A stretch of DNA of 64,000 nt from a virus. The notes below the pieces were generated by a model that was given only the letters and a program-made list of their open reading frames with translations, had not been told where the DNA came from and did not search any database. How positions within the stretch are numbered: the stretch's first letter is position 1; the number at the start of each line of letters is the position of its first letter. Below, in pieces: positions 18,551 through 47,808 of this stretch. The translations under genes and the position numbers were made by a program. The DNA lies in IMG/VR virus record IMGVR_UViG_3300027849_000009; one strand, given 5' to 3'.

Positions 18551-18578
18551 TTGACAACCAGTACCAGTATGTTATAAT
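18551..18578 (+). promoter_or_regulatory. sigma70-type promoter
   Basis: TTGACA-16-TATAAT. Confidence 0.7.
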
Positions 18579-18610: not shown

Positions 18611-18907
18611 ATGAAGTCATTCAAAGTATATCTTCAAGAATCCATCAAAGTAAAGTGGAATAAAGTTGCTGATGGATACGTGAATAAAAAGATGGTGTAC
18701 AAACACGTTACTTCTGATGGTATGTATCAAATACGTATATCTGGTGCTGATTCTATGAAATTTAATAAAGATGGCAGTCAGAAAGTGATGCCAACAGTCT
18801 TTGATATGCATCCAGCATCATATAGTCCAAGATACCCCGTTAGCGGTTATAAGAATGTTACTATAGCGAAAGCAGAAGTTGAAAGGTGGATTGCTGATCA
18901 TGAATAA
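18611..18907 (+). CDS. Putative internal head protein
   Basis: N-terminus MKSFKVYLQE resembles the T4 capsid-targeting sequence (CTS). Confidence 0.65.
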   Translation: MKSFKVYLQESIKVKWNKVADGYVNKKMVYKHVTSDGMYQIRISGADSMKFNKDGSQKVMPTVFDMHPASYSPRYPVSGYKNVTIAKAEVERWIADHE

Positions 18908-20129
18908 TTTTAACGAGTTCATTACAGAAGCGGCACAAAAGAACACCCATATGACCCACATCGAAGATAAGGTCATCTACGGTGGTGCTAATGGAACTCG
19001 TCAAGCAATCAATGCTCTTCGTGAGTTAAGAGATATGCTTGGCGGTAAGAAAGAAGGTTCTGTATCAGTCAAGTGGGACGGTGCACCAGCAGTATTTGCC
19101 GGTACTGATCCCTCTGACGGTAAGTTCTTTGTTGCTAAGAAAGGTATCTTCAATAAGAATCCAAAGATATACAAGACTGATGCTGACATCGATGACGATA
19201 CATCTGGTGATCTCAATGACAAACTAAAACTTGCATTGAAGTATTTACCTGAACTTGGTATTAAAGGAGTCATTCAAGGCGACTTTCTATACAAGCGTTC
19301 TGAACTAAAGAAGAAAAAGATCGGTACAGAAACATATCTTACCTTTCACCCTAACACAATCGTGTATGCAGTACCCGTAAAACAATCTAAAGAACTTCTC
19401 GCTTCTAAAATCGGCATTGTATGGCACACTACATATACAGGTAGTTCTTTTGAAACTATGAGCGCATCATATGGTGTTGATGTAAACAAACTGAAGAAGT
19501 CAACTAATGTCTGGTCACAGGATGCTATATTGCGTGATGTGTCTAATGCTACGATGACTAAAAAAGAAACGGATGAAGTAAATGAAACTCTATCACAAAT
19601 TGGCAAACTTTTTAACCAAATCTCTGGAAGCACTCTTCGAGTATTATCCTCTAACCCAGGACTTGCACAGACCATCGAGACCTTTAATAACACCTACGTT
19701 AGACGAGGAGAAGTTATCGGAGACTCCAAAAAGCACGCCGAAAAACTCATCGCCTACATCAACCAAAAGTACCAAAAAGAAATCGACAAGCGCAAAACCG
19801 AAAAAGGCAAAGGCGCCCAGCAAGCAAAGCGCGACGAAATCCTCAAGTTCTTCAGCAAAGAAAACAAAATAAGTCTAATTAAGATGTTTGAATTGCAGAA
19901 ATTGATTGTTTTAGTTAAATTAAAACTTATAAATAACCTTAATAGATTAAGTAATATTGGTGCGTTTGTTAAAACTAAGAACGGATACAAGACTACTGGT
20001 CAAGAAGGTTATGTTGCAATAGACACACTTGGTGGTGATGCGGTGAAACTAGTTGATCGTATGGAGTTTTCATACAACAACTTTTCACCTGATATATTAA
20101 AAGGATGGGATAAACCAAAAGGTAAATAA
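18900..20129 (+). CDS. DUF6267-like protein; RNA/DNA ligase-like nucleotidyltransferase
   Basis: KWDG, QGD, EGYV and VKLV motifs; CTS-like MNNFNEFITE. Confidence 0.7.
   Translation: MNNFNEFITEAAQKNTHMTHIEDKVIYGGANGTRQAINALRELRDMLGGKKEGSVSVKWDGAPAVFAGTDPSDGKFFVAKKGIFNKNPKIYKTDADIDDDTSGDLNDKLKLALKYLPELGIKGVIQGDFLYKRSELKKKKIGTETYLTFHPNTIVYAVPVKQSKELLASKIGIVWHTTYTGSSFETMSASYGVDVNKLKKSTNVWSQDAILRDVSNATMTKKETDEVNETLSQIGKLFNQISGSTLRVLSSNPGLAQTIETFNNTYVRRGEVIGDSKKHAEKLIAYINQKYQKEIDKRKTEKGKGAQQAKRDEILKFFSKENKISLIKMFELQKLIVLVKLKLINNLNRLSNIGAFVKTKNGYKTTGQEGYVAIDTLGGDAVKLVDRMEFSYNNFSPDILKGWDKPKGK
19582..19872 (+). CDS. Putative overprinted K/S/T/P/A-rich basic protein
   Basis: +1 frame ORF inside the DUF6267-like gene, coinciding with a codon third-position shift to C/A. 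Confidence 0.5.
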   Translation: MKLYHKLANFLTKSLEALFEYYPLTQDLHRPSRPLITPTLDEEKLSETPKSTPKNSSPTSTKSTKKKSTSAKPKKAKAPSKQSATKSSSSSAKKTK

Positions 20130-20130
20130 G

Positions 20131-20565
20131 ATGGCAGATAAACCATTATCGTTTAAAGACTTTTTAACAGTTGACTACAGTCAGACTGGTGAAAGAGTAC
20201 AAGCGACAAACGCTAAACAGCGTAAAGAAACTGACGAAGCACTCGACTTTCAACAGAGACGTGCCCGCGGTCGTTCGATGAAAAAGAACAAAGCAAAGAT
20301 AGCGATGGGTCGTAGACGTGCCGCTAAGAAAACTGCTAGTCAAGATGTCCTTAAGAAACGTGCCCGCAAAGGCGCGATCAATCAACTATTCAAAAAATTC
20401 GCAAAGGGCACTTCACGGTCTGATTTACCTGCATCTCGGCGTCAAGAGATCGAGAAGCGTATCGAGAAAATGAAATCCAAAGTGAATATGATTGCACGTA
20501 AGAACTTACCTGCTATTCGCAAATTAGAGAAAGATCGCCGACAGGGTGGAAATACTCCAAAATGA
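20131..20565 (+). CDS. Basic hypothetical protein, putative head-associated
   Basis: Very K/R-rich; SFKDFL N-terminus; TDEAL possible cleavage site. Confidence 0.75.
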   Translation: MADKPLSFKDFLTVDYSQTGERVQATNAKQRKETDEALDFQQRRARGRSMKKNKAKIAMGRRRAAKKTASQDVLKKRARKGAINQLFKKFAKGTSRSDLPASRRQEIEKRIEKMKSKVNMIARKNLPAIRKLEKDRRQGGNTPK

Positions 20566-21809
20566 TTCCTTCCTTTAAACAGTATCTCGTAGAAGAGAAC
20601 CGTGAAGTGTTCTTCACATTCGGTCGTATGAATCCTCCTACGATCGGACACGGCAAACTACTGTCAGTACTATCCACTAAAGCGGGCAAGAATCCCTGGT
20701 TCGCTTATGTCTCACAATCACAAAACGCAAAGAAAGATCCCTTAACCTACGACCAGAAAGTGAAACACGTTCGCAAGATGTTTCCTAAGTTTGGTCGTAA
20801 TGTAATGCTTGATAAGAAAGTACGTACAGTGTTTGATATTGCTGTAATACTATTCGATCAAGGTTTCAATCGCATTACAATGGTTGTTGGTTCGGATCGT
20901 GTAACAGAATTTAAGACTCTCCTTGACAAGTACAATGGTGAGAAAGCGCGACATGGTTTCTACAACTTCGAAAAGATTATGGTTGTCTCTGCTGGTGAAC
21001 GTGATCCTGATGCCGAAGGCGTTGAGGGAATGTCTGCATCTAAGCAACGCGAGAATGCCAAGAACAATGATTTCGCATCATTCTCTCAGGGTGTTCCTAA
21101 GTCGATGAATGCGAGAGATGCAAAGCGTCTGTTCAATGATGTTCGCGGTGGGATGGGACTCAAAGAAACAACTACATTTAGAAATCACATTGAACTTGAA
21201 TCAGTATCAGAGACACGAGAGAAATTCATTCAAGGTGAGTTATTCAATCTTACTGACAAAGTTATTATTAGCGAGTCAGGTAAGTCGGGATACATTCAGA
21301 CTATTGGTACTAACTATGTTATCGTAGCATTAGATGAAGGTGGCATTACTCGTCAATGGATAGAATCAGTTGAGTTAGCAGAAGTACCAACAAGTCAGAT
21401 GATCGATAAGATTAAAGCATCTACTGTATCTAAGAAGCGATATCAGACAGCACTCAAAATACTAAAAGATGTTGTTGCTCGTAAGAAGAAAGAAGCGAAT
21501 GGTAAACCCATGCGTCACGGTATCGAATACTACGCTGGACAAATCGCTAAACAGTATGATATTAATCCTCGGGTTCTTGCTACTATGCATGAGACTAATG
21601 TTCCTGGATGGGGAACACCAGAAGCAACTAAGAAAGCGAAGAAGTATGTGCCTGGTCAGAATGAAGCGAAGGGTGACGAAGTTGCCATAGCAAGAGATGT
21701 TATCGACCAAGAACTTCAGACAGACAAGATTAAACATGACCGTATTCTTGATCGTGCGAGACTAAACCGCGCTAGACGCAAGAATAAACAAACAAATCCA
21801 AAAGTATAA
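20562..21809 (+). CDS. Cytidylyltransferase-like (HIGH-superfamily) nucleotidyltransferase
   Basis: FTFGRMNPPTIGH, VVGSDR and MSASK motifs; CTS-like SFKQYLVEE. Confidence 0.85.
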   Translation: MIPSFKQYLVEENREVFFTFGRMNPPTIGHGKLLSVLSTKAGKNPWFAYVSQSQNAKKDPLTYDQKVKHVRKMFPKFGRNVMLDKKVRTVFDIAVILFDQGFNRITMVVGSDRVTEFKTLLDKYNGEKARHGFYNFEKIMVVSAGERDPDAEGVEGMSASKQRENAKNNDFASFSQGVPKSMNARDAKRLFNDVRGGMGLKETTTFRNHIELESVSETREKFIQGELFNLTDKVIISESGKSGYIQTIGTNYVIVALDEGGITRQWIESVELAEVPTSQMIDKIKASTVSKKRYQTALKILKDVVARKKKEANGKPMRHGIEYYAGQIAKQYDINPRVLATMHETNVPGWGTPEATKKAKKYVPGQNEAKGDEVAIARDVIDQELQTDKIKHDRILDRARLNRARRKNKQTNPKV

Positions 21810-21812
21810 ATA
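21805..21812 (+). promoter_or_regulatory. T4-type late promoter
   Basis: TATAAATA 6 nt before ATG 21819. Confidence 0.7.
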
Positions 21813-21818
21813 GGACAT

Positions 21819-23819
21819 ATGAAAACATTTAATGCGCTATCAGAAGAAGTAACTCAAAAGCAACTCAATGATGTTGAGAAGTTTGCGGATCGTATTCTCG
21901 CCAAGTTTAATGTAGACATTGAATTTACTCGACACTTTGCGGATCGTATGAATGATGATCGAAACAAACCCGCAGTTAGTGTTGCGGAGTTACAGCAGAT
22001 ATTCAAAAAGATTGCAAGAAAGAAAGCGAAGGATATAAGACAGAATCCAGACAGTGAAGCGGTCATAAAAGATATTCAAAAAGACTTGAACTTGCCTGTG
22101 GTTATACGTTATAATAGAAACAAAGAAGAGTTTGAGGTTACTACAAAGACTATCATGCGCAAAAAAGATTTTAAAACCACAAGTAAAGTAATTACTACGG
22201 AAGCAAAAAAAATGAAAGATGACCCTTGTTGGAAAGATTACGAGATGGTAGGCACTAAGAAGAAGAATGGTAAAGAAGTGCCTAACTGTGTACCAAAAGA
22301 AGATGTGTCCTTAGAGTCAACAAAGGAATACGGTAAGTCTCAGGCAGCGATTGCTCGTAAGCGTCAACAGGCAGCAATGCGTCCTGGTGAGATGGACAAG
22401 TTAAAGCGTCTCAAAGATATGCTCAAGAATGCTAATAATAAAGTTGGTGTTGTTAAAAAAGAATCTGTTGATGAAGCAACTATTGAAGAAGCAACAATGG
22501 GCCCAGACAAGTTAGAGATGCTACGTAAAGCATATGGTTCTGTTAATAAGATAGACCCCTCATCTCCTACGTATAAGAAGATGGAAAAAATGATTGATGG
22601 TATGAGTCAAGACCATTTGAAAGGTCTTGCTTTTGCTAAGATTAAATTCTTATCTATGTTGGCAGCAACTAAGTTACGTTACAAGCACAACGTAAAGTTA
22701 GACTTTGGTGACTACTGGGCAGAATCGGTCGATCATGATCTAGAACAAATCGAAGAAGCAGTTCAAGATTGGACAGTCACCGTTACAAAACCTGTCAACA
22801 AATTAAAGAAAGGTGCCACACAAAAAGTTAAAGCACGTTCGGCATTTGAAGCAATTAACAAAGCAGTGAAACTGTGGGGCGATCCTGCTCTTAAAGCGGC
22901 ACCAATGAATTCGTTTAGTATTACTAAAGAATCTGTTGAACTTGACGAAGCGGCGGGCAAATATTCAAAATCTGGTGATAATCTAATGTATAAATGGGGT
23001 GATGTTAATAAAGCACTAATGAATGCTGGTTTAAACCCTAGAGCAATATTAAATGTTCTTACCGATCTTTCTAAAAAGGAAGTCAAAGAGTCTGTTGAAC
23101 TTGACGAAGGGTACCAAAATAAAGTTTTAGCAAGTAAAGGTCAGTGGGTATTTCAAAATAAAGGCGAAATTCAGCAAATTAAATATAAAGGAAAAGTAAT
23201 TGGAGATGGTTACTATGACCAAGGGTCAGATAGTTTTGATGTAAGTTGGACAGATTTTAAGCGTGGTCAAAAGAATAACCGCAAAGGAGGAACAATGTTT
23301 GATACCGCACAGGATGTCGTAGACTTTTTCTCTAAGATGAAAATTACAGAGTCTGTTGACCTTGACGAAGCAAGACAAATGAAAGACCCTAAGAAAGACT
23401 CTATGGTCACTAAGAGTGGTAAGACTATCGTAATCGACAAGTCTAAGGAATCAGAGTACCTCAAGAAAGGTTGGACTCTTGCTGAGAATGAGACTGTCAA
23501 AGAGTCTAATAACTTCTTTAAGTTCCGCGACTCATTGAATGAGAAGAAAGATTCTGCTGCCGATTTGTACTTTGATACTTACTCTGCCGCAGTACAACAC
23601 GCAAAGGCGCAAGCAGAGAAGAAAGGTTTTGAAGTTGTCGAAGATGATTGGTTCACTCAAGTGACCACAGGCAAAGGGAAACCTGGTCGTGGTAAGACTA
23701 CACGCCACACTCTGAAACTTCTCAAGAATGATAAACCAGTACGTAAAAGTCTTGCTATTCAGGTATACAACCGTGATACCAATAAGAACACTTACGAACT
23801 TAATATGTACATATCCTAA
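21819..23819 (+). CDS. Modular putative internal head polyprotein
   Basis: CTS-like MKTFNALSEE; modules separated by repeated ESV(E/D)LDE linkers. Confidence 0.75.
   Translation: MKTFNALSEEVTQKQLNDVEKFADRILAKFNVDIEFTRHFADRMNDDRNKPAVSVAELQQIFKKIARKKAKDIRQNPDSEAVIKDIQKDLNLPVVIRYNRNKEEFEVTTKTIMRKKDFKTTSKVITTEAKKMKDDPCWKDYEMVGTKKKNGKEVPNCVPKEDVSLESTKEYGKSQAAIARKRQQAAMRPGEMDKLKRLKDMLKNANNKVGVVKKESVDEATIEEATMGPDKLEMLRKAYGSVNKIDPSSPTYKKMEKMIDGMSQDHLKGLAFAKIKFLSMLAATKLRYKHNVKLDFGDYWAESVDHDLEQIEEAVQDWTVTVTKPVNKLKKGATQKVKARSAFEAINKAVKLWGDPALKAAPMNSFSITKESVELDEAAGKYSKSGDNLMYKWGDVNKALMNAGLNPRAILNVLTDLSKKEVKESVELDEGYQNKVLASKGQWVFQNKGEIQQIKYKGKVIGDGYYDQGSDSFDVSWTDFKRGQKNNRKGGTMFDTAQDVVDFFSKMKITESVDLDEARQMKDPKKDSMVTKSGKTIVIDKSKESEYLKKGWTLAENETVKESNNFFKFRDSLNEKKDSAADLYFDTYSAAVQHAKAQAEKKGFEVVEDDWFTQVTTGKGKPGRGKTTRHTLKLLKNDKPVRKSLAIQVYNRDTNKNTYELNMYIS
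22926..23370 (+). repeat. Three copies of a 25-bp linker repeat encoding (K/T)ESV(E/D)LDE
   Basis: AAAGAATCTGTTGAACTTGACGAAG at 22926-22950; variants at 23085-23109 and 23346-23370; partial copy at 22458-22476. Confidence 0.9.
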
Positions 23820-24151
23820 TGAAAAAGTTTAGTTCTTTCATAAAGGAAGACTGTACTTGTGAAGAACTAGAAATCACAGAGGCGGAATATCAGGGTAAAT
23901 CTGTTACACTAAATAATCCCTTTAGACTGCCTTCTGGTAATAAGAAGAAGTTTGGCGTATACGTTACCAATAAGAAAGGTAATATAGTTAAAGTTACGTT
24001 TGGTGATCCTAACATGGAGATCAAACGTGATGATCCCGAAAGACGAAAGTCCTTCAGAGCGCGGCACAATTGTGCTGATAAGAAAGATAAAACCACTCCG
24101 GGTTATTGGAGTTGCTATCAATGGAGGGCATCTGCGAAAGTAGATAACTAG
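23819..24151 (+). CDS. DUF6321-like protein with CTS-like N-terminus
   Basis: MKKFSSFIKE; FGDPNM, RRKSFRARHNC and YWSC motifs. Confidence 0.75.
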   Translation: MKKFSSFIKEDCTCEELEITEAEYQGKSVTLNNPFRLPSGNKKKFGVYVTNKKGNIVKVTFGDPNMEIKRDDPERRKSFRARHNCADKKDKTTPGYWSCYQWRASAKVDN

Positions 24152-24474: not shown

Positions 24475-25503
24475 ATGAATCCCGAGTACATTAAAAATAT
24501 CGCCCAACTATGGCAAGACGTACAAGAAGGCGAAAAGAAGAAATTAGATCCCGTAGATGATAAAGCGAACGATAAGAAGTTCGTTAATCGCAAAGACAAA
24601 GACATTGACAACGATGGCGATGTTGATTCATCTGATGAGTTTCTGCATAAGAAACGCAAAGCAATCGATGATAAGATTGATGGCGGTAAGAAACCTGCTA
24701 AGGAATCTTGCGGCGATGACGATAAGAAGGTGAAGAAAGAGTCGGACGAAGATATGACTCCTTGTCCTGATTGCGAAGGTTCTACTGAAAATCACGAACC
24801 TGATTGTCCTAAAGCAGACAAAGGTAAAAAAGAAGTAGAAGAAGGCAGAGTGAAAGATCAAATGGTTACAGATTCCGAGAAGATGTCTAAGAAAGACTTC
24901 ATTAAGAAGTACGGAAAAGAAATGGCAGATGATCTTTATGAAGCAAAAGAATATTCTTACACGGTTGTTCATGCTAAGAAAGGTAAGGTAGTAGTTACTG
25001 CCCCTACTTCATATGATGCGGCACAGAAAGCGGCAAAGCAATGGAAACTGAAGTCTACCGGTGGTGTTGATGCGCATCTTATGAAAGAGTCAAACACTGT
25101 TACTCATGCTCACCACGGTTACGGTGAAATTCTGCAACGTACTGATGAAGGCATAGATGTTATGTTTGAACATGGCGTTGAAATGGGTATGAGCGAAGCA
25201 ACTCTAACATTCCTAGAGACTGTTGCCGCTACTACACTAGCAAAGAAAGCGACTCAAGTTGCTGGCGGTGGAGAGAAGACTGGACAAAATGCTTCTAAAG
25301 GCGAGAAAGAATTTGCTGATAAGCATGACAAAGATGATCCAAAGTTAGCGGCAGATGATGCTGATGGACACGAAGATGCTACTAAAGCAGGACGTGCAGT
25401 TAAGTCTCAGTCTGGTACTCGTGGTAACGAACCTCGTATCGGTGACAAGACTATTGTAAATCCTGTTAAGGGTGCTGTAACTAAAACTACTGGTAAGGAA
25501 TAA
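24475..25503 (+). CDS. Modular charged protein, putative head-associated
   Basis: DIDNDGDVDSSDEFLH EF-hand-like motif; several xxE cleavage-like sites. Confidence 0.75.
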   Translation: MNPEYIKNIAQLWQDVQEGEKKKLDPVDDKANDKKFVNRKDKDIDNDGDVDSSDEFLHKKRKAIDDKIDGGKKPAKESCGDDDKKVKKESDEDMTPCPDCEGSTENHEPDCPKADKGKKEVEEGRVKDQMVTDSEKMSKKDFIKKYGKEMADDLYEAKEYSYTVVHAKKGKVVVTAPTSYDAAQKAAKQWKLKSTGGVDAHLMKESNTVTHAHHGYGEILQRTDEGIDVMFEHGVEMGMSEATLTFLETVAATTLAKKATQVAGGGEKTGQNASKGEKEFADKHDKDDPKLAADDADGHEDATKAGRAVKSQSGTRGNEPRIGDKTIVNPVKGAVTKTTGKE

Positions 25504-25772: not shown

Positions 25773-26090
25773 ATGTCAGAAGAACTAGATAAGATCCATC
25801 ATCCTGCTGATACCAACGGTGATGGAAAGGTATCAAAAGAAGAAGAAGCAATGTACTTAGAGTTTAAACGTAAAGAACTCGACGATGCTGATGCTATGCG
25901 AGACGCACAACGTAAGATGGCGTGGTTCGCATTGTTCGGTATGTTGTTATATCCCTTTGCTGTTGTACTTGCTTCTCTATTAGGTATCGATACAGCGGCG
26001 AAGACTTTAGGTGATATGGCGCCTACTTACTTTGTATCTGTATCATTAATTGTTGGTGCTTTCTTTGGCGCTCAGGCACTGAAGAAATAG
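25773..26090 (+). CDS. EF-hand plus two-TM membrane protein (holin candidate)
   Basis: DTNGDGKVSKEE followed by two TM helices. Confidence 0.65.
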   Translation: MSEELDKIHHPADTNGDGKVSKEEEAMYLEFKRKELDDADAMRDAQRKMAWFALFGMLLYPFAVVLASLLGIDTAAKTLGDMAPTYFVSVSLIVGAFFGAQALKK

Positions 26091-27269: not shown

Positions 27270-27298
27270 TTGACATCCTCTCGATTGTAGTGTACAAT
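27270..27298 (+). promoter_or_regulatory. sigma70-type promoter for nrdAB
   Basis: TTGACA-17-TACAAT. Confidence 0.7.
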
Positions 27299-27352: not shown

Positions 27353-29341
27353 ATGCCAGTAAAAATTGATAAGAAGCGTGATGCACTATTAAAAGATTAC
27401 GCAGTAGGTATGTTGAAAGACTTCTACTTAAATGATAATGAAAATTCTCCGCAAGAAGCATTCGCTAGAGCATCAACAGCATGGTCAAGATACGAAGGAC
27501 AATTGGACGAAGCATTAGCACAACGACTCTATGATTTTGTTTCGAAGAAGTGGTTTATGTTTGCTAGTCCTGTACTATCTAATGCGCCTACTGATAAGAA
27601 GAAAGATAAAGGGATGCCTATCTCATGCTTTCTAACTTATGTTCCAGATACATTAGAAGGACTAATTGGTCACTCATCTGAGTTAAGATGGTTGTCAGTC
27701 TATGGTGGTGGAGTTGGTGGTCATTGGAGTGATGTACGTACAGTATCAGATGTAGCACCTGGTCCTATGCCATTCTTACATACTGTCGATGCTGACATGA
27801 TTGCATATAAACAAGGCAAGACTCGCAAGGGTTCTTATGCCGCATATATGGATGTAAGTCACCCTGACATTATAGAGTTTTTGAACATGCGTGTGCCTAC
27901 GGGTGACGTACAGCGTAAAGCATTGAACTTGCATAATGCAATCAATATTACTGATGAGTTCATGGAAGCGGTTACTAAGAATCTTTTGTTCGATCTACGT
28001 GATCCGAAAGGACAAAAAGTTAAAGAATCAATCAATGCTCGTAAGTTATGGGAACGTATTCTTGAGACTCGATTCAGAACAGGCGAACCTTACTTAAACT
28101 TTATTGACACTGCTAACAGAGACTTACCTCAACCATTGAAAGACCTAGGTCTGAAGATTAATGGTTCGAATCTCTGTAATGAAATTCACTTACCCACATC
28201 GAAAGACCGAACTGCTGTATGTTGTTTGTCTTCATTAAATCTGGAATACTATGATGAATGGAAAGATACTACTATTGTTCGTGACCTTATTCGTATGCTT
28301 GATAACGTCTTGCAGTACTTCATTGACGAAGCACCCAACACAATTGAACGTGCAAAATATAGCGCCGCAAGAGAGAGATCGCTCGGACTTGGAGCGATGG
28401 GATTCCATAGTCTATTGCAACGACACGGTGTTGCATGGGAGTCACAGGCAGCGCGGGAAATTAACGATGCTGTGTTTAAACACATTAATACCCAAGCGAT
28501 TCTGGAGACTGAAGTCTTGGCACAAGAGAGAGGTGAATATCTCGATGGTCAGGGAAGTGGACGGAGAAATAGTCATCTCATGGCAGTGGCACCCAACGCT
28601 TCAAGTGGAGTAATACTAAGTACTAGTCCTTCGATTGAACCAAGTAAAGCAAACGCATACACACACCGTACTCGTGCTGGATCGTTTCTTGTTAAGAATC
28701 CATACTTGATTCAATTACTGATAGATAAGGGTGAAGATAACGAGTCTAACTGGACAAGTATCATCACCAACAAAGGTTCTGTTCAACACTTACCGTTTAT
28801 GACTGAAGGCGAGAAAGCAATCTTCAAGACTGCGCAAGAGTTAGATCAGAACTGGGTAGTTCAACACGCAGGTGAACGTCAGAAGTATATCTGCCAGGGT
28901 CAGAGTGTTAATCTATTCTTTCCAGCAGGTACTCCTAAGTCGTATGTAAACAAAGTACATATCAATGCATGGAAACTAGGACTGAAAGGACTGTACTATC
29001 TACGTACAGAAGCGAAGTCTCGTGCAGAGAATGTATCAGAGAAAGTAGAAAGAGTAGCACTAGAAGGTGATAAGCGAAACGTAGTATATTCTAAACCAGA
29101 TTGTCCATTCTGTCAATTGGCGAAAGAAGAAATGAGACTACGTGGTATTCCATATGATGAAGTTAATCTAACTGAGGTAGGTAAGACAGCGGCAGAAGTA
29201 ACTGGTCGTAAAGATGTTAAAACAGTTCCACAGATATATATTGGTGGAGAATATATTGGTGGGTATGAAGACCTTATGTCATACCTAGATAAAGAAGTTG
29301 AAAACGATGGCGATGACGAATGTCTCGCGTGTTCAGGATAA
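27353..29341 (+). CDS. nrdA: Ribonucleotide reductase class Ia alpha subunit with fused glutaredoxin
   Basis: SCF, GSNLCNEI, APNASS, GLYYLR; then CPFC...TVPQI Grx domain and terminal CLAC. Confidence 0.97.
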   Translation: MPVKIDKKRDALLKDYAVGMLKDFYLNDNENSPQEAFARASTAWSRYEGQLDEALAQRLYDFVSKKWFMFASPVLSNAPTDKKKDKGMPISCFLTYVPDTLEGLIGHSSELRWLSVYGGGVGGHWSDVRTVSDVAPGPMPFLHTVDADMIAYKQGKTRKGSYAAYMDVSHPDIIEFLNMRVPTGDVQRKALNLHNAINITDEFMEAVTKNLLFDLRDPKGQKVKESINARKLWERILETRFRTGEPYLNFIDTANRDLPQPLKDLGLKINGSNLCNEIHLPTSKDRTAVCCLSSLNLEYYDEWKDTTIVRDLIRMLDNVLQYFIDEAPNTIERAKYSAARERSLGLGAMGFHSLLQRHGVAWESQAAREINDAVFKHINTQAILETEVLAQERGEYLDGQGSGRRNSHLMAVAPNASSGVILSTSPSIEPSKANAYTHRTRAGSFLVKNPYLIQLLIDKGEDNESNWTSIITNKGSVQHLPFMTEGEKAIFKTAQELDQNWVVQHAGERQKYICQGQSVNLFFPAGTPKSYVNKVHINAWKLGLKGLYYLRTEAKSRAENVSEKVERVALEGDKRNVVYSKPDCPFCQLAKEEMRLRGIPYDEVNLTEVGKTAAEVTGRKDVKTVPQIYIGGEYIGGYEDLMSYLDKEVENDGDDECLACSG

Positions 29342-30499: not shown

Positions 30500-32143
30500 A
30501 TGAAACCCACTATAGCATTGTATGAGGGTCATGATACTAATCTAACAGTATATGACCCTAATACCGACTCGTTCTACATATATGAATTTGAACGTGTTTC
30601 AGGTATTAAACACCACAACATAAAAAATCGTACGGGTAGCAATGGTTTATCTACCAGCGCAAATGTTCAATATCTACATATTATTCTGAATCATCTTAAA
30701 GAAGTTCATGGCATTGAAAATGACTTTGGCACATTTATCTTCAAACCCATTTGGTGGAATATATCATACATTGACCGTAGTATTATCAATTCAGACAAAG
30801 AGATTTTACCAGTCATCGATCACCATGATGCTCATGCATGGTGTGCATATGGACAGGCACCTGAATCGTTCGAGAACACTGCTTGTATAACTTATGATGG
30901 TTGGGGCGAAAACACCGCATTCAAGTACTCGTGTTTCAAAGGCATCAATCGACATTCAGTTGAACCCATGTATTATAATTTCTCGATGGTCTACACTGCT
31001 ATGGCACACTCTCTCAAGATATTACATAATACTATGGATCTTGATCTCCCGGGTAAACTAATGGGATTATCTGCATACGGTGAAGTGAATCGCACGTGGT
31101 CAGATATAATGAAAGATTCTATCAAATCAGACTGGTGGAAATATAAACTAAACAAAGATACAGGATCTAAACCACCTGCCACCTGGAACGACTCACAAAA
31201 TCCATTACTTGTGATGAGAAAACAGATCAATCCGTGTATTCAGACAACTGATTATAACATAAAACTAGAGAACACTAAAGCATTCATGCTTGCTAGGTCT
31301 GCGCAGATTGCATTCGAAGAAGGTATCGTCGAAACTATTAAAGAAGAGTTCCTTGATAAGATTGAAGCGCACGATAACAATCTGATAATATCTGGTGGTA
31401 GTGCATTAAATGTTCTTGCTAACGAAGCAATCAAACGTGCATTTCCTGATGTCAACATATACATCCCACCAAACTGTCATGATGGCGGTCTAAGTTTTGG
31501 TATGTTATATGAACATCTAAAGACTACTAAGAAATACGATGTCACACAATCTGGTCCAAGAATATTTGATTACAAATATATGGATCCGATGATTAAACTA
31601 TACGGCGCAAAGAAGGTCAGTATTAATGATATTGCAGACTTACTTAAAGAGCAGAAGATAATAGGGATGGTGATTGGTAACATGGAAGTAGGACCGAGAG
31701 CATTAGGCAATCGTTCTATACTATGTGACGCATCTAACCCTAAGATGAAAGACACACTCAATTGTCGTGTTAAGTTCCGAGAGTGGTTTAGACCGTTCGC
31801 TCCTATATGCAGAAAGGAAGATGCACCTAAGTATTTCTACTCACCAAACTTTGATAACATGGAATGTATGCAATTCGTCGCGGATGTGTTGCCAGAGTAT
31901 CAAACTAAACTATTCTCTGTAACACACTACGACAATACTGCCAGACTGCAGGTGGTGACGGAGGAGAGCAATGCCGCAATCTATGACATACTGACAGCGT
32001 TCGATGGAGTACTAATAAACACTTCCTTGAATGTTCAAGGTAAACCTATTCTAAATACCTTTGATGAAGCATTTCATGTTTTACAAAAGACTGGTCTAGA
32101 CCATATAGTGGTAGAGTATGAAAATGATTATTGGTTATTCTAA
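30500..32143 (+). CDS. O-carbamoyltransferase (NodU/CmcH/TobZ family)
   Basis: GHD, HH.AHA, DG.G, GKLMGL, GG.ALN, GPRALGNRS, FRPFAP, NTS.N. Confidence 0.92.
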   Translation: MKPTIALYEGHDTNLTVYDPNTDSFYIYEFERVSGIKHHNIKNRTGSNGLSTSANVQYLHIILNHLKEVHGIENDFGTFIFKPIWWNISYIDRSIINSDKEILPVIDHHDAHAWCAYGQAPESFENTACITYDGWGENTAFKYSCFKGINRHSVEPMYYNFSMVYTAMAHSLKILHNTMDLDLPGKLMGLSAYGEVNRTWSDIMKDSIKSDWWKYKLNKDTGSKPPATWNDSQNPLLVMRKQINPCIQTTDYNIKLENTKAFMLARSAQIAFEEGIVETIKEEFLDKIEAHDNNLIISGGSALNVLANEAIKRAFPDVNIYIPPNCHDGGLSFGMLYEHLKTTKKYDVTQSGPRIFDYKYMDPMIKLYGAKKVSINDIADLLKEQKIIGMVIGNMEVGPRALGNRSILCDASNPKMKDTLNCRVKFREWFRPFAPICRKEDAPKYFYSPNFDNMECMQFVADVLPEYQTKLFSVTHYDNTARLQVVTEESNAAIYDILTAFDGVLINTSLNVQGKPILNTFDEAFHVLQKTGLDHIVVEYENDYWLF

Positions 32144-32156
32144 GGAATTATAACAG

Positions 32157-32612
32157 ATGTGGAATATGAATGAAAGTGTATTCGAACCCAGCGAAGAGTT
32201 TTTAAAAGACTATGTTGGATTTGTGTATCGTATCACTGAGATAGATACAGGTAAGATGTATATAGGAAAGAAGTTCTTCTGGAAACCCAAGACACTACCC
32301 AAGAACTCTGTACGTAAAAGAAAGATAAAAATGAAAGTACCTTCGGACTGGCAGAAGTATTATGGTTCGAGTGAACATCTATTAGAGTCAATCAAGAGAA
32401 CTGGCGTTGATAACTATCACCGTGAAGTTCTAAAGTTATGCACAACTAAAGGCGAATGCTCCTACTATGAAGCAAAGTTACAATTTGAATACGATGTCCT
32501 ACTCGACGAACAATACTACAATGCGTTTATCGGTTGCAAAATACACGCAAAGCATTTGCCCAAACCCGCTATCGAAATACGAACAGCAGAACCTTGGTTC
32601 AATAGACCTTAA
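32157..32612 (+). CDS. GIY-YIG nuclease-domain protein
   Basis: GFVY...YIGKK and YYGSS motifs. Confidence 0.8.
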   Translation: MWNMNESVFEPSEEFLKDYVGFVYRITEIDTGKMYIGKKFFWKPKTLPKNSVRKRKIKMKVPSDWQKYYGSSEHLLESIKRTGVDNYHREVLKLCTTKGECSYYEAKLQFEYDVLLDEQYYNAFIGCKIHAKHLPKPAIEIRTAEPWFNRP

Positions 32613-32615
32613 ACT

Positions 32616-34364
32616 ATGAGGAATCTAATCGCCGCTAATTGGGGGCATGACGCCTCACTATGTTTCTGGAATGATGTTGCGAAAACATTTCATACTATTG
32701 AGATAGAAAAACTTGTAGGTATAAAACACTACAGAGGTCACGCACGTAAGGATGAAGAACTAGAGATTCTTAAAAGGTGTGCTAAGATAGCAGAAGAAGA
32801 GTTTGGCATACCCAACGACTATCACTGCATCATTCGTGGCAATCTATTGAACGATATCAAGAAAGAACAGATTGAAAATGGCACGGGTCGTTTGACAGAT
32901 AATAAAGTTTCTGATGATATGATGCTCGATGTTGATAACATTAATGCGGCATTTAATACTAAGAATATTGATATCACATATCGACATCATGAAGCACACG
33001 CATGGAATGGATTCGCTCCTTCGGGATTTGACAAAGCAGTCATACTTACTATGGATGGTGGTGGTAACGATGGGTTCACTCACTTGTTCACTGCTGAACA
33101 TCCTAATAAACCTCTGACAAGTCGTACACGAATACATGGAGTTCAAGCGCATGGCAGAAACTATACTCAGGCATGCCTATGGTCGTTATACAGTATAATG
33201 CAAAGCACCGACTGCTCGTTAGATGTTGCGGGTAAAGCAATGGGTGCATCGTCGTACGGAAACACTGAAAGCGATCCCTACTCGACTGCAACGAAACTGT
33301 TTTTGAGGACTAACTCCGCTTGGAAAAACTTTAGTCCTGGCAGAATGCTGTACGAGAAACATTACAATCAACCTCTGAAAGACGGTACTAACAGCAAGAT
33401 TAAGTTTATCGAAGCATTTAGTACTTCGCCCGAAGTGTACAATCCCTATAAACTATTTATTGATGAGATCGATTGGCAAACAGAATGTGATATGGCAAGA
33501 GGCATTCAAGATGCGTTTGTTAAAGATGCTATAAAATGGTTCAAAGAGATTATGAGTGTTAGGAACATAAACCTAGATGACTACGACAGAAATGTGGTGT
33601 TCTCTGGTGGTAGTGCGTTAAATGTACTGTTCAATGATATACTACAGCGAGAGATGAATATCAATCTATTCGTGCCGCCTAATCCAGCAGACCAAGGAAT
33701 TCCCTACGGTATGCTCGTGCAATGGATGGTCGATCATGCAACACAATACTCGCGTGAAGAAACTACGTACTCTGGTCAAAAGATACAAGACATGGAGGAC
33801 TTACAGAAATATTATCATTCACACAAAGGCAGAATGACAACTATTGCAGATGTAGCAAGCATACTGAAAGATGATAAGATTGTCGGACTCGTGCAAGGTG
33901 GCATGGAAGTAGGTGCGAGAGCATTAGGCAATCGTTCTATACTTGCTGATCCAAAGGGCGCAGATAAGAAAGACAAAGTTAATGTAGTAAAGAGACGCGA
34001 AGCATACCGTCCGTTCGCGCCAGTATGTAGATTAGAAGATGTAGAGACTTACTTTGACTCAGTTCGTTATGACAATCTATCTTATATGAATTTTGCGATA
34101 AAGACTCGTGAGGAACATATAGATAAGTTAAGAGCAGTTACTCATGTTGATGGGACAGCAAGAGTACAGACAGTTACTAAAGAACAGAATACAATACTAC
34201 ATGATTTATTAAGTGAATTTGATGGTGTATTATTGAACACTTCTTTCAATGTGAAAGGATCTCCAATACTAAATACACTTAAAGAAGCGTTCTATATGCT
34301 TGACGAAACCACACTCGATCATCTGGTAGTAGTAGATGAACATAACACAATATGGATTTTTTAA
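32616..34364 (+). CDS. O-carbamoyltransferase (NodU/CmcH/TobZ family), second paralog
   Basis: GHD, HHEAHA, DGGG, GKAMG, GARALGNRS, YRPFAP, HVDGTARVQ. Confidence 0.92.
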   Translation: MRNLIAANWGHDASLCFWNDVAKTFHTIEIEKLVGIKHYRGHARKDEELEILKRCAKIAEEEFGIPNDYHCIIRGNLLNDIKKEQIENGTGRLTDNKVSDDMMLDVDNINAAFNTKNIDITYRHHEAHAWNGFAPSGFDKAVILTMDGGGNDGFTHLFTAEHPNKPLTSRTRIHGVQAHGRNYTQACLWSLYSIMQSTDCSLDVAGKAMGASSYGNTESDPYSTATKLFLRTNSAWKNFSPGRMLYEKHYNQPLKDGTNSKIKFIEAFSTSPEVYNPYKLFIDEIDWQTECDMARGIQDAFVKDAIKWFKEIMSVRNINLDDYDRNVVFSGGSALNVLFNDILQREMNINLFVPPNPADQGIPYGMLVQWMVDHATQYSREETTYSGQKIQDMEDLQKYYHSHKGRMTTIADVASILKDDKIVGLVQGGMEVGARALGNRSILADPKGADKKDKVNVVKRREAYRPFAPVCRLEDVETYFDSVRYDNLSYMNFAIKTREEHIDKLRAVTHVDGTARVQTVTKEQNTILHDLLSEFDGVLLNTSFNVKGSPILNTLKEAFYMLDETTLDHLVVVDEHNTIWIF

Positions 34365-42073: not shown

Positions 42074-42658
42074 GTGGCATTTGACAAAACGTACTACGAA
42101 ACAAACAACTATACGAACTATCTCGAAAGAGGTGATCGTTATCAACAAACTGCCGCAGAGTTGCTGGCACACTTAAAGACTATGAACTTAGATCATGGAC
42201 CCTTTCTCGACTTCGGTTGTGCTGTAGGGTTTCTACTTCAGGGTCTAAAGAATCTAAGACCTGATGAGGAGATGTACGGTGTTGACATCTCTGAATATGC
42301 TCGTGAAGTATGTAAGGAGAAAGAACTCACTGCATTAGCAGAAGTAGAATTCGCTAAGAGTCACGGTGTTGTATTTGCTATGGATGTATTCGAGCATATG
42401 CCTATCGATCAACTCGACCTATTCTTCAATCTTATTAAAGCAGAAACTATCGTATTTCGTATGCCGGTACCTGCTGCCGAAGGCGAAGATTACTACCTTG
42501 ATGTATCTCGTGCTGATCCTACACATCTTATTAAGTGGACTAAGGACGAGTGGAGAGAATTCTTTGTAGAGAATAACTATATTCCTCTTGACTTAAACCT
42601 CTCAACGGTGTATAATAGTACTGGAGTTTACACTGGATTAGCAATTCGAGTTAAGTAA
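42074..42658 (+). CDS. Class I SAM-dependent methyltransferase
   Basis: LDFGCAVG, GVDIS, DVFEH, DPTH. Confidence 0.85.
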   Translation: MAFDKTYYETNNYTNYLERGDRYQQTAAELLAHLKTMNLDHGPFLDFGCAVGFLLQGLKNLRPDEEMYGVDISEYAREVCKEKELTALAEVEFAKSHGVVFAMDVFEHMPIDQLDLFFNLIKAETIVFRMPVPAAEGEDYYLDVSRADPTHLIKWTKDEWREFFVENNYIPLDLNLSTVYNSTGVYTGLAIRVK

Positions 42659-43200
42659 TGTACAACGCATTTAAAATAGAAAACATCTTCGACCAAGACG
42701 AGATAGAGAATCTAAAATCTTTATTCGAATCTTGTTCGGAGAGTTTAGCACATCAAGATTACAATCTCTATGATGTTGATAAACGTATTATTCCAAACTC
42801 TGCTACACATCCTCTGTTACAAAAACTAAATCAATATGTCGATCTGACTCCTATGTCTCATTACTTTGTTAAGTATGATGTCGAAGGATTCACTAGTCTG
42901 CATACAGATGATGATGGTGTGGTAAAGTTGACTGTCGTTACATTGCTTGACGATGTGGATTTAGTAGGCGGCGAGACTCTTGTACTTGATCGCTACGTGA
43001 AGAATGCTAGACCATCATATAAGTATGCAAAACGTGGTAAGATGGGAGAAGCGCCAATTGGCAGTTCACGTATTCCTGTCATTGCTAGAATGAAACCTGG
43101 AGACTCTATCAGTTATGACAATGCAGTAAAGCATGGCGTTTGTCAAGTTGAGAAGGGTTATAGATTAGTATTAGTTAGTTGGTATAAAGAACATGATTAA
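42658..43200 (+). CDS. 2OG-Fe(II) oxygenase
   Basis: HTD...GGE...H.V.....R..LV.W. Confidence 0.8.
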   Translation: MYNAFKIENIFDQDEIENLKSLFESCSESLAHQDYNLYDVDKRIIPNSATHPLLQKLNQYVDLTPMSHYFVKYDVEGFTSLHTDDDGVVKLTVVTLLDDVDLVGGETLVLDRYVKNARPSYKYAKRGKMGEAPIGSSRIPVIARMKPGDSISYDNAVKHGVCQVEKGYRLVLVSWYKEHD

Positions 43201-43672
43201 GATTGCACACCGTGGTAATGTAAGTGGACCTAATCCTGGTCGCGAGAACACCTCAAAGTATATTGATGAAGCAGTTGAATTAGGGTATATCGCTGAAGTG
43301 GATATATGGAAAGTCGGTGACAGATTATATATGACACATGAATGCAAGTTGAACGATAGAACTGAAATCAACATTGAATGGTTAAAGTCACGAAAGAATG
43401 AACTTGTTATACACTGTAAAGATATTATTGCATTACAGTTTTTCTCGTGTTCACTTGAAGACTGGCACTTCTATTATCACGAGAGTGACGCATATACTCT
43501 AACAAGTGCTAATTGGATTTGGGCATTTCCCGGGAGTCCTGTTCACCCATATAAACCTAAAGACATTTACAATTCTGCTGATTGTGTTTCTATATGCAAC
43601 TTACCAGAACTGAGTGACCAAGATGTATCACTGTTTGCTGGTGTATGTTCTGATTACATAGAGAACTATTAA
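43193..43672 (+). CDS. Glycerophosphodiester phosphodiesterase-like protein
   Basis: IAHRGN, EN, EVD, H, C.D motifs. Confidence 0.8.
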   Translation: MIKIAHRGNVSGPNPGRENTSKYIDEAVELGYIAEVDIWKVGDRLYMTHECKLNDRTEINIEWLKSRKNELVIHCKDIIALQFFSCSLEDWHFYYHESDAYTLTSANWIWAFPGSPVHPYKPKDIYNSADCVSICNLPELSDQDVSLFAGVCSDYIENY

Positions 43673-44376
43673 TGAAAGTCTATTGTATTTACACAGAGAA
43701 AGATCCTCAATCTAAGAAGGGATTGCAAAGGTGTAAAGATTCTGCTAAGAAGCACGACATCGATCTTATATCATATCCCTGCATACACTTCTCTGACTTA
43801 AAAGAAGTTTGGAAAGAGCATGACATCAAAGCGAAGTATAAACCAATCCCAGGACAACAGACAGACTTTGTTAAGAAGTTCGCGCCACAGACTAGGGTAG
43901 CAAACGGCACTACACATTATATGTTGTATAAGAAGTGTGTCGAATTGAACGAACCTATTGCTATACTAGAACACGATTCATTTTTTGTCGCACCTCTTCC
44001 TACAGATTTACCTCCTAACATAGATGAGGCGATTATTCAAATATCATCACATTCTGCGATGCAACTTACTCCTACTATGTTGAAGGGTTGTGGTCGTGCT
44101 AATAAGATGAGAACATATGGTAAGACACAAAAACCATATCGCGACTGGACTGGTGAGAAGGGTGTTATATCTCATCCTCTATCAGGCACAAACGGCACTA
44201 GTGGTTACATAATAGGTCCCGTGGCAGCACAGCGAATGATTGACTATATAAATGTAGAAGGTATAGGATTTGCTGATAGATTACGTGAAGATCATATTGG
44301 CGAAGGAAATATTCACTTACAAGTTCCGCAGAGCGTTCTCTGTCCGAACGATATTAAATCAGCGAGACTGACATGA
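43672..44376 (+). CDS. Glycosyltransferase family 25-like
   Basis: H..L...C, LEHD, GY.I.P.AA. Confidence 0.75.
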   Translation: MKVYCIYTEKDPQSKKGLQRCKDSAKKHDIDLISYPCIHFSDLKEVWKEHDIKAKYKPIPGQQTDFVKKFAPQTRVANGTTHYMLYKKCVELNEPIAILEHDSFFVAPLPTDLPPNIDEAIIQISSHSAMQLTPTMLKGCGRANKMRTYGKTQKPYRDWTGEKGVISHPLSGTNGTSGYIIGPVAAQRMIDYINVEGIGFADRLREDHIGEGNIHLQVPQSVLCPNDIKSARLT

Positions 44377-45005
44377 ACATGAACATGAAAGACATCTTTT
44401 TAAAGAACGGTAGTGATAAGGGTGTTACTGGTAAATACCCACACCACTATCACACAGTGTATGAATCAGTATTCGAATCGCGTCGGAACGAACCTATTAA
44501 GATATTAGAGGTAGGTATTTGGAAAGGAACGAGTCATCAATCATGGTTAGATTACTTTCCCAATGCAGAAGTCTATGGCATTGACATATTTACTCGTGAA
44601 CAACCCGAAGACGTTCCTGCACTACAAGATGAGCGGTGTCACTACATCAAAGCAGACAGTACAAATCCTAGTGTACAAGGTCTCATAGATGAAGCATGGG
44701 GCGAAGATATTAAGTTCGACTTTATCATTGATGATGGTTTACATACGCCTACAGCAAACAGAAAGACTTTCGAGAATCTATGGAAGTATACAGCAAAGGG
44801 CGGCAGTTTCTTAATTGAAGATATTTGGCCAATCAACAAGATGACTTTCGATGAAGCAAAACATTCTTGGATACAGAAATCTGCTTACAACAGACACTTC
44901 TATGACATGTTCCTCGAGGCATTGCCCGAAGGATACGTAGAATACGATTGTCGATATACGAGCGGTGTTCCTGATAGTTATATTATAGAGATAAAGAATG
45001 ATTGA
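44373..45005 (+). CDS. Sugar O-methyltransferase-like (class I SAM)
   Basis: SDK...H.Y, LEVGI, GIDI, FIIDDG.H, IED. Confidence 0.8.
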   Translation: MNMNMKDIFLKNGSDKGVTGKYPHHYHTVYESVFESRRNEPIKILEVGIWKGTSHQSWLDYFPNAEVYGIDIFTREQPEDVPALQDERCHYIKADSTNPSVQGLIDEAWGEDIKFDFIIDDGLHTPTANRKTFENLWKYTAKGGSFLIEDIWPINKMTFDEAKHSWIQKSAYNRHFYDMFLEALPEGYVEYDCRYTSGVPDSYIIEIKND

Positions 45006-45696
45006 TGGTTACGTAATAACACTAAGTGATAATCCAATTTCTTGGCATTCAAGCGATAGACTCATTGCTAGTTCAGAGAAAGTAGAGAACGAGTTTACGA
45101 TTCATAAGACTCAAGCAATCACACCTGATCGTGTAACAACATTGATGAAACAGCATCGACTTCATTGGAACTACCCTTGGCAAGGATCACAACTTGATTT
45201 GCAGTCTGGTCTTACGAAGTCTGCTTATCAAACTGTTGATCCCAATAAGAGAATCGCTTGCTTTCTGTCACACTATCTACTATGGAAAAAGTGTGTAAGT
45301 GAGAAGAAAGACATAATGATATTCGAGCATGATGCATATTTTACAAGTAAGTTAGAATATAGTTTGCTATTTCAATCACCTTATGATATAATAGGACTTA
45401 ATGATCCAATGGGAGCAACTAGACGCGCCCAACTATATCATGAAGGTGTAAGCAAGAGACGCGGAGTTAGTCCAGCACCTAAGATAGATAGCATTGAGAT
45501 TCCACAAGGCATAGCAGGAAACTCTGCATACTTCATTAAACCTGAAGGCGCACAGAAACTAATAAACTTAGTGGATGAATACGGTGCTTGGCCAAACGAT
45601 GCTATTATGTGTAAACAATTAATACCTCGCAAACTGGGACAATTGTTCCCTTATGTAACTAAAGTACAAGGTATCGAATCGACGACCTCAATATGA
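44998..45696 (+). CDS. Glycosyltransferase family 25-like
   Basis: ACFLSH..LW, FEHDA, AY.IKP.GA..L. Confidence 0.8.
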   Translation: MIDGYVITLSDNPISWHSSDRLIASSEKVENEFTIHKTQAITPDRVTTLMKQHRLHWNYPWQGSQLDLQSGLTKSAYQTVDPNKRIACFLSHYLLWKKCVSEKKDIMIFEHDAYFTSKLEYSLLFQSPYDIIGLNDPMGATRRAQLYHEGVSKRRGVSPAPKIDSIEIPQGIAGNSAYFIKPEGAQKLINLVDEYGAWPNDAIMCKQLIPRKLGQLFPYVTKVQGIESTTSI

Positions 45697-46343
45697 AATC
45701 ATTTGTAATTACAATAAAATCTTTACCGGAGTCTGTTGCAGTAGCAGAGAGAATGATAGCATCGGCACCTGAGTATGATGTTCAGATGTTCAATGCTATT
45801 ACTCCTAAGGATGATCCATATAAACTATTTGATTATTATGGATTGCCTCTACATGGATTTAGAGAAGAGGGATCAGTGAAACTTAACTGTATGTCTGCAT
45901 TCTTATCACACTACACATTATGGAAAATGTGTGTGAAAGATAATGTCGAGTACCAAATATTCGAGCATGACGCTGTAGCAGTTATGCCTATTCCTAGAGT
46001 GATCAAATATACGGGTTGCGTCAATATTGGTGCACCTAGTTATGGTAGGCAAGTGCAGTGTGTTCAGATGGGTGTTAATCCTTTGACAACTAAGACTTAC
46101 TTTCCTGGCGCACATGGTTATCGACTCAAACCTGATGCGGCAAAGGCATTTATTCAAGGTGCTTATGACTATGCCAGACCAACAGATGTATTTCTAAACA
46201 TTGCAATCTTTCCTTGGTTAGAAGAGTTCTATCCACATCCTGTGGTTGCAAGAGATACATTTACTACTATTCAAAAAGAAGGTGGGTGTGTAGCAAAGCA
46301 TAATTATGATGCTAACAAATATCGGATAATAAGTAATGTCTAA
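45693..46343 (+). CDS. Glycosyltransferase family 25-like
   Basis: AFLSH..LW, FEHDA, GY.L.P.AA, D. Confidence 0.8.
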   Translation: MKSFVITIKSLPESVAVAERMIASAPEYDVQMFNAITPKDDPYKLFDYYGLPLHGFREEGSVKLNCMSAFLSHYTLWKMCVKDNVEYQIFEHDAVAVMPIPRVIKYTGCVNIGAPSYGRQVQCVQMGVNPLTTKTYFPGAHGYRLKPDAAKAFIQGAYDYARPTDVFLNIAIFPWLEEFYPHPVVARDTFTTIQKEGGCVAKHNYDANKYRIISNV

Positions 46344-47734: not shown

Positions 47735-47747
47735 GTCAAAATAAGTC

Positions 47748-47776
47748 TTGCATTGGTTGGATATCTGTGATATAAT
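47748..47776 (+). promoter_or_regulatory. sigma70-type promoter
   Basis: TTGCAT-17-TATAAT; tandem AAAATAAGTC upstream. Confidence 0.65.
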
Positions 47777-47808
47777 ACTACTTGTATTCAATTGAAGAGA
47801 CTTATATT

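Follow-up and report, generated by a model that had tools for sequence, protein, structure and literature searches.

The internal proteins of phage T4 (IPI, IPII and IPIII, and also Alt) begin with a short leader that carries aromatic residues at positions 4 and 7 and ends in hydrophobic-x-Glu (PMC9026906). IPII and IPIII have a common 11-residue start, MKTYQEFIAEA, which served as the reference leader in this study. Mutagenesis of the T4 leader has attributed targeting to residues 4 and 7 and processing to residues 8 and 10 (PMC9026906), and the T4-type head protease cleaves after Glu with a hydrophobic residue at P3 (PMC5694885). Every T4 internal protein is a single small protein, encoded by a separate gene and provided with a leader of its own. 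Here we describe a gene that appears to place up to ten payloads behind one leader, an open reading frame (ORF) of 666 amino acids (aa) at positions 21819..23819 of a 64,000-nucleotide (nt) stretch of viral DNA from IMG/VR virus record IMGVR_UViG_3300027849_000009. The whole of that stretch is referred to below as the window.

Comparison with related phages showed that modules of this ORF are shuffled in frame at a linker that doubles as a DNA repeat. We also propose, with slightly more confidence than doubt, that this hyperplastic locus of a marine, T4-like myophage encodes, in the ORF, a cargo polyprotein that would be packed into the head, cut at the linkers and injected. The phage type is deduced from related IMG/VR records of 116–149 kb, as these have a T4-type gp17–gp23 block (terminase, sheath, tube, portal, Peptidase_S77 protease, scaffold and gp23). 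Among cultured phages, the OM43 myophage Melnitz (family Kyanoviridae) is the closest at the DNA level.

Organization of the cassette ORF

The ORF is a chain of 9–10 small modules, which we divided into a 9-residue leader and nine modules, M1–M9. Three relatives are named in what follows: G001, the nearest record, whose flanks are 97–99% identical to the window, and L006 and L007, whose flanks are ~94% identical. The parts of the ORF, with positions in the window, are:

21819..23819, + strand: cassette polyprotein ORF, 666 aa, ATG start
21819..21845, + strand: N-terminal leader, aa 1–9, ending in L-S-E; disordered in the structural model (pLDDT <50, residues 1–7)
21843..22199, + strand: M1, a folded alpha/beta domain, weakly RelE/HigB/RegB-like
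22200..22316, + strand: M2, a two-Cys 'CW' mini-module
22317..22490, + strand: M3, helical and basic, with a C-terminal double linker at 22458–22493 and breakpoints at 22443 and 22478
22491..22757, + strand: M4, with other modules in its place in G001, L006 and L007; found in 4 other loci and in Rhizobium phages
22758..22949, + strand: M5, with repeat copy 1 at its end (22926–22950)
22950..23108, + strand: M6, with repeat copy 2 at its end (23085–23109); present in just one other locus
23109..23369, + strand: M7, with repeat copy 3 at its end (23346–23370)
23370..23543, + strand: M8, aa 518–556 plus a short tail; the most mobile cassette
23544..23816, + strand: M9, a widespread alpha/beta domain

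An earlier note on the window, made by a model from the letters and a list of ORFs, had described this ORF as a string of apparently unrelated small modules, and its pieces do match different phages separately. Residues 11–125 match stand-alone genes of ~130 aa in Melnitz and a Paraglaciecola phage, hypothetical proteins of Flavobacterium phages, and, in the Sinorhizobium phiM12 group, the C-terminus of a protein of 602 aa. Residues 119–172, with the two-Cys 'CW' module, match cyanophages and haloviruses, and residues 232–286 match Rhizobium phages. The two sequence motifs listed in the note were located at aa 36–49 (FTRHF.DR.ND.RN) and aa 137–158 (CW...VPNCV), and all of its junction strings (including ITTEA, SLES, LEQIEEA, KESVELDEA, KESVELDEG, TESVDLDEA and SLNE) were found, each Glu-terminated. 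The modules are AT-rich, as the note had it, to a slight degree: M6 and M7 have a GC content of 0.35–0.36, and the ORF and the window one of 0.38 and 0.40, respectively. GC at third codon positions ranges across the modules from 0.23 (M6) to 0.52 (M8), with a permutation p of 0.044.

Searches of Pfam at E up to 5, with the whole 666-aa protein and with each of the nine modules, gave chance-level matches only. The modules vary in how widely they are distributed. M7 had no clear copy among 79 related loci, while M9 was present in 1230 cluster representatives, which are 95–1105 aa long and in which it can take any position, and one protein of 893 aa has about eleven linkers of the type described below. 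Stand-alone M1 genes have a leader of the same type as that of the ORF. In ~29 loci that have M1 inside another gene, DNA homology to the ORF starts just past the leader, at aa 8–9.

M1 and M9 were each folded alone with AlphaFold, a check that the note had proposed for every module. Both gave confident folds (pLDDT 86.5 for M1 and 91 for M9). In VIA-align, 20 of the 23 top matches of M1 were RelE/HigB/YafQ/ParE/YoeB-type toxins or T4 RegB, all of them weak (Z 4.0–5.8, with root-mean-square deviations of 2.7–4.7 over 64–114 residues; the match at rank 18, Cami1, is excluded from the 20). The RelE-like N-terminal domain of the earlier note thus has weak support at the level of the fold, with Z of 5–5.8 to RelE/HigB/YafQ and T4 RegB. 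Foldseek against the PDB returned nothing at E <= 0.001 for either module (E >= 0.03 for M1), M1 has no sequence similarity to T4 RegB, and its matches in the ESM Atlas were unnamed viral clusters only. Residues H39, R43, R48, K110, R114 and K115 of M1 are invariant. Based on the model, a RelE/RegB-like endoribonuclease is a reasonable guess for M1.

No fold identity was adopted for M9, as its cystatin-, PAS- and NTF2-like matches were heterogeneous and uninformative (Z <= 5.4). Against BFVD, M9 had a weak match (E 0.026, TMq 0.58), to be read as a lead only, to a protein of 1134 aa from an uncultured phage, for which UniProt gives the name anti-CBASS Acb1. That protein may be another polyprotein, with a known counter-defense domain.

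In-frame shuffling of modules at a linker doubling as a DNA repeat

Glu closes every junction in the ORF, that is, after aa 127, 166, 219/224, 313, 377, 430, 517, 556 and 575. The linkers are short and acidic, and their most frequent form coincides with a DNA repeat. Three of the linkers are copies of a 25-nt repeat (22926–22950, 23085–23109 and 23346–23370) with 88–96% identity, as had been read from the letters in the earlier note. The 22-nt core of this repeat has three exact matches in the 64 kb, all within ORF 21819..23819, and none in 100 shuffles. The identical 22-nt linker occurs in 15 further contigs, always in frame and within ORFs of 331–931 aa, where it connects at least 8 different module pairs. 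Silent positions in 34 distinct linkers were far from codon usage: Leu was encoded by CTT in 28/34 (18% in the background) and never by TTA or TTG (41%), and Asp by GAC in 23/28 (41%). Homologous junctions of related phages are included in these counts, which are consequently partly dependent.

The peptide is also conserved at the junctions. With the conserved initial residues of M1, M8 and M9 as anchors for the upstream contexts, the pattern [LIVM]-x-E directly preceded the module in 84%, 91% and 89% of distinct contexts, respectively, in comparison to 5%, 5% and 21% of random windows from the same proteins. Junctions that differ in both DNA and residues keep the pattern, for example I-E-E-A, L-A-E-N, L-N-E-K and M-Y-E-E. 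This retention, although the remainder of the linker differs, favors selection that acts on the peptide and not on the DNA alone. The pattern fits the T4 cleavage rule and is compatible, by inspection, with the site at which the propeptide of a relative's major capsid protein probably ends. We infer from these sequences that the linker may be a head-protease cut site.

The note had further suggested that modules are swapped in frame at the linker, and had named constant module content among relatives as evidence to the contrary. Our alignment of orthologs for module presence and absence showed that the content is not constant; it varies greatly, and the DNA breakpoints lie on the linker repeats. 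Homology blocks with G001, L006 and L007 stop at 22443/22478, 22748, 22930–22945 and 23364–23367, all of which are linker positions. The polyprotein gene of G001 encodes just 349 aa, comprising M1–M3, a different module for M4, and M5, followed by a stop. In L006, a 43-aa cassette is inserted exactly after aa 127.

Across the 79 related loci, DNA homology blocks begin and end at module borders. Block starts cluster at aa 8–9, just after the leader, and at aa 511–517, and ends cluster at aa 552–558; for M8, blocks start at aa 511–517 in 56 loci and end at aa 552–558 in 55. The ends of protein BLAST high-scoring segment pairs, gapped and ungapped, were enriched 2.5–3.4-fold near [LI]xE. That measure was noisy, and was replaced by the DNA-level block ends and the upstream contexts of anchored module starts.

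The 80 loci resolve into 65 architectures within a conserved frame of genes, which consists of the DUF6267 gene, a small basic gene, the cytidylyltransferase gene, the variable slot, gene 23819, gene 24157 and gene 24475. The features around the ORF in the window are:

18551..18578, + strand: sigma-70-type promoter, TTGACA, 16 nt, TG, TATAAT, with 12/12 consensus matches; it fronts the gene cluster
18611..18907, + strand: small gene with an N-terminus like a capsid-targeting leader, pattern M-K-x-F-x-x-Y-L-x-E
18900..20129, + strand: DUF6267 gene (PF19782, 5e-104), ATG at 18900
20131..20565, + strand: small basic gene, phrog_23027 (positions 213–327); fused with M1 into a 602-aa protein in phiM12-group phages
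20562..21809, + strand: NMNAT-like cytidylyltransferase gene with a leader, an SH3-like part and a modular tail; M1 and M2 are inserted in most relatives
23819..24151, + strand: gene with a T4-like leader
24475..25503, + strand: modular gene with cassette differences in comparison to G001

Modules shift between ORF 21819..23819 and three neighboring genes. M1 and M2 are usually found inside the cytidylyltransferase gene in relatives, in either order, and in most relatives M8 lies within the homologue of gene 24475..25503. This is the case in G001, whereas the gene in the window is without that M8 cassette and has a 38-aa cassette (about 24976–25089) that is missing in G001. In its homologue of gene 23819..24151, G001 carries an additional module that separates the leader from the body and is attached through the same linker. 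An assembly artifact as the source of these differences was ruled out, as the same architectural logic is seen in cultured Melnitz as well as in many contigs that are independent of one another. The syntenic locus of Melnitz (MZ577097.1, 12203–19275) spans genes 15–21; gene 18 encodes a cytidylyltransferase polyprotein of 651 aa, and gene 20 a modular protein of 463 aa that contains M9.

Proposed capsid loading and cleavage, and rival explanations

Leaders resembling those of the T4 internal proteins are concentrated around the ORF. Six leader-like N-termini lie within 18.6–26.5 kb, in comparison to two in the rest of the window. The genes at 18900 and 23819, and the G001 copy of the latter, fit the T4 leader pattern in full, and the first 11 residues of the DUF6267 gene product have 6/11 in common with the IPII/IPIII leader. 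With crude ORF calls in all loci the enrichment of leaders was weak (22% versus 13%), and we have not relied on it. A Peptidase_S77 protease of the gp21 type is present in 4/5 of the large related records, beside the portal, scaffold and gp23 genes.

Proteomic data published for cyanophage virions bear on the same question. The cytidylyltransferase of the window is homologous to a core cyanomyovirus gene (35–39% identity over ~260 aa), and in CsCl-purified virions of S-SZBM1, both the corresponding ORF140 and the adjacent ORF139 were detected (PMC9146016). ORF139 is a protein of 457 aa that occupies the same slot as ORF 21819..23819 and carries the M2 'CW' module. Purified virions of S-CREM2 likewise contained the products of ORF154–156, namely the cytidylyltransferase and those of the two ORFs that follow it, and the authors of that study stated that similar enzymes recur in cyanophage virion proteomes (PMC10665884). 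The 'CW' module is also found beside virion genes in S-TIM5, and within the head-maturation-protease gene of halovirus HSTV-1.

A further observation on S-SZBM1 (NC_070839.1, 78988–81477) is that ORF139 matches its best relative over 57% of its length, while its neighbors match theirs over 100% (PMC9146016 supplement). Coverage of this kind fits a variable modular slot in cyanophages too.

Loading and cutting in the capsid are backed by these findings, namely the protease in relatives, the [LIVM]-x-E enrichment, the T4-like leaders of the cluster and the cyanophage virion proteomes. Import via one leader, as the earlier note had imagined it, cutting by a gp21-type protease and injection are thereby given indirect proteomic support, and we judge them plausible, with chances that are about equal either way. 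The proposed course of events would begin with a gene of the stand-alone M1 type (a leader and a RelE/RegB-like domain), to which eight further small, independently folding modules were added in frame. As the comparisons above show, recombination between linker copies moves, deletes and inserts modules in frame, within ORF 21819..23819 and between it and its three neighbors. The polyprotein would be made early and taken up into the prohead core by way of its N-terminal T4-type leader, where the gp21-type prohead protease would cut after the junction Glu to release separate small proteins. On leaving the head together with the DNA, these would be active from the first moments of the following infection, M1 possibly as an injected endoribonuclease.

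Several observations weigh against this proposal. The gp21-type protease is known from relatives, and the window (64 kb) holds no head genes. The leader of ORF 21819..23819 has F4 and L7, but its L-S-E is at 7–9 and not at 8–10, and the junctions after aa 127 and 166 are without a hydrophobic residue at P3. The detections in cyanophages are based on 2–4 peptides (PMC9146016, PMC10665884), and the authors of one study allow for carry-over of abundant proteins (PMC10665884). The phiM12 homologue is without a virion-protein annotation, whereas the gene two positions upstream has one. Capsid loading is weakened as well by its early-promoter context. The cluster lies behind a perfect sigma-70 (early-type) promoter, among ribonucleotide reductase (RNR) and replication-type genes, and since that promoter and the next strong one (27270–27298) bracket it, the region of 18.6–27.1 kb resembles one early transcription unit. 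A search for late promoters gave 8 boxes, with 5 expected, and none was convincing. The only late-type box nearby, TATAAATA at 21805–21812, is T4-late-promoter-like and is 6 nt before the ATG of the polyprotein, but it overlaps the stop codon of the cytidylyltransferase gene and is probably coincidental.

The consensus early promoter before the cluster, the lack of a usable late promoter, the surrounding RNR and replication-type genes and the annotation of the phiM12 homologue are what would be expected if the ORF encoded an early, cytoplasmic multi-domain protein that stays uncut, like beads on a string. The linker would then be a flexible acidic spacer, as is common in multi-domain proteins, at which in-frame recombination is tolerated; the modules would work jointly or separately while remaining tethered, and nothing would be packaged. 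A spacer, however, leaves unexplained why hydrophobic-x-Glu stands before module starts in 84–91% of unrelated contexts, why the leaders are T4-like, and why proteins of the neighboring gene and of the same slot are found in purified cyanophage virions, and we regard an uncut protein as rather unlikely. The conserved junction motif and the early expression context would both be accommodated if cleavage of the polyprotein at its linkers took place in the cytoplasm, through a protease of the host or another one of the phage, with unpackaged products that act in the producing cell. We consider this improbable, as the cluster revealed no other protease gene, cleavage at Glu with a hydrophobic P3 is a known rule of T4-type head proteases (PMC5694885), and the virion proteome data favor packaging. 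Lastly, the repeat could have been selected purely as DNA, such as a recombination or homing signal, with the encoded peptide incidental. Conservation of silent positions in the linker and the identical 22-mer in many contigs agree with that, but many junctions hold the peptide pattern despite differing DNA and residues, the repeat keeps one constant reading frame inside long ORFs and no endonuclease gene is next to it, so that a role in DNA alone seems most improbable.

Packaging and cutting of a cargo polyprotein is the reading that we retain. A more specific version of it is that the linker is dual-purpose, both a head-protease site and a DNA recombination joint, and that together with a T4-type leader it forms a multi-gene, in-frame cassette system with which marine T4-like phages continually re-assort the small proteins that they package and inject, M1 being an injected endoribonuclease. 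Such a system would be the equivalent, at the level of protein, of the cassette arrays of integrons. We put this version forward tentatively, with somewhat more doubt than confidence.

Other genes of the window showed features of their own. The DUF6267 protein (18900–20129) has a ligase/capping-type K-x-D-G motif and adjoins the cytidylyltransferase (20562–21809), and the two are fused in PHROG family phrog_455, a fusion that suggests a paired function in nucleotidyl transfer. Genes 24475–25503 and 25773–26090 have EF-hand-like D-x-D-x-D-G calcium-binding loops, of a kind that recurs in unrelated metagenomic polyproteins and in gene 21 of Melnitz. The RNR large subunit (27353–29341) has a fused C-terminal glutaredoxin domain. 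Methyltransferases, three family-25 glycosyltransferases and a TET-associated glycosyltransferase (PF20691, 49652–50596) are encoded at 42074–50596, and two tandem carbamoyltransferases at 30500–32143 and 32616–34364. Together, these two regions (42074–50596 and 30500–34364) look like a DNA-hypermodification or sugar-modification cluster.

Comparison with known systems

If the modules are cut and injected, the locus would represent a rapidly re-assorting library of first-minute effectors in very abundant ocean phages, and the linker would provide a simple sequence rule by which effectors and their boundaries could be located in metagenomes. It would also mean that a protease site can evolve into a portable recombination joint, so that sub-gene modules move in frame between genes. 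Packaging aside, the domain shuffling mediated by the linker is an unusually clean natural case of modular protein evolution, and the syntenic locus of Melnitz offers a cultivable system. Our searches of the literature gave no description of such an in-frame cassette array.

As an analogy only, the locus resembles the cassette arrays of integrons in having exchangeable units, a repeated boundary element and one upstream expression signal. Neither an integrase nor attC was noted at the locus, although no search was directed at an integrase. The repeat described here is a translated stretch of 22–25 nt inside an ORF, unlike attC, and module exchange presumably occurs by general homologous recombination. 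Nearer to hand are two processes of T4-type phages, modular shuffling by PeSLs and the exchange of glycine-rich motifs in gp38, where short conserved flanks likewise act as joints in hyperplastic regions (PMC2839356, PMC4122927, PMC3157838). PeSLs, as described there, are intergenic promoter-terminator cassettes with which whole genes move, whereas the joint in this locus is coding and frame-keeping, and sub-gene modules move between several genes.

The polyvalent proteins described by Iyer et al. in 2017 (PMC5512222) also have many unrelated domains per polypeptide, were proposed to be co-delivered with DNA, and have been considered as subject to processing. They differ from the ORF in being large proteins whose domains are recognizable and enzymatic, with embedded peptidase domains for processing, and no repeated linker was described for them. 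That repertoire of domains is absent here, where no module matches Pfam. Nor is the packaging or late gene context of polyvalent proteins seen here, since the locus lies between the DUF6267/cytidylyltransferase pair and RNR, behind an early-type promoter. At the level of a single module, M1 weakly resembles the RelE/ParE endoribonucleases and T4 RegB, which are its best fold matches, and has invariant His, Arg and Lys residues. It differs from the RelE/ParE superfamily in its low Z scores, the lack of an antitoxin partner and an extra N-terminal helix.

The closest known system is that of the T4 internal proteins, with their leader, processing by gp21 and hypervariable payloads. The likeness covers the leader (PMC9026906), to which the neighbors of the ORF conform more closely than the ORF does, a highly variable payload that follows a conserved leader, the gp21-type protease in relatives, and the detection of proteins related to those described here in virions (PMC9146016, PMC10665884). 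In contrast to the one-payload genes of T4, the locus in the window, as known from its sequence, has up to ten payloads behind one leader, with internal linkers that resemble cut sites and are at the same time the joint for recombination.

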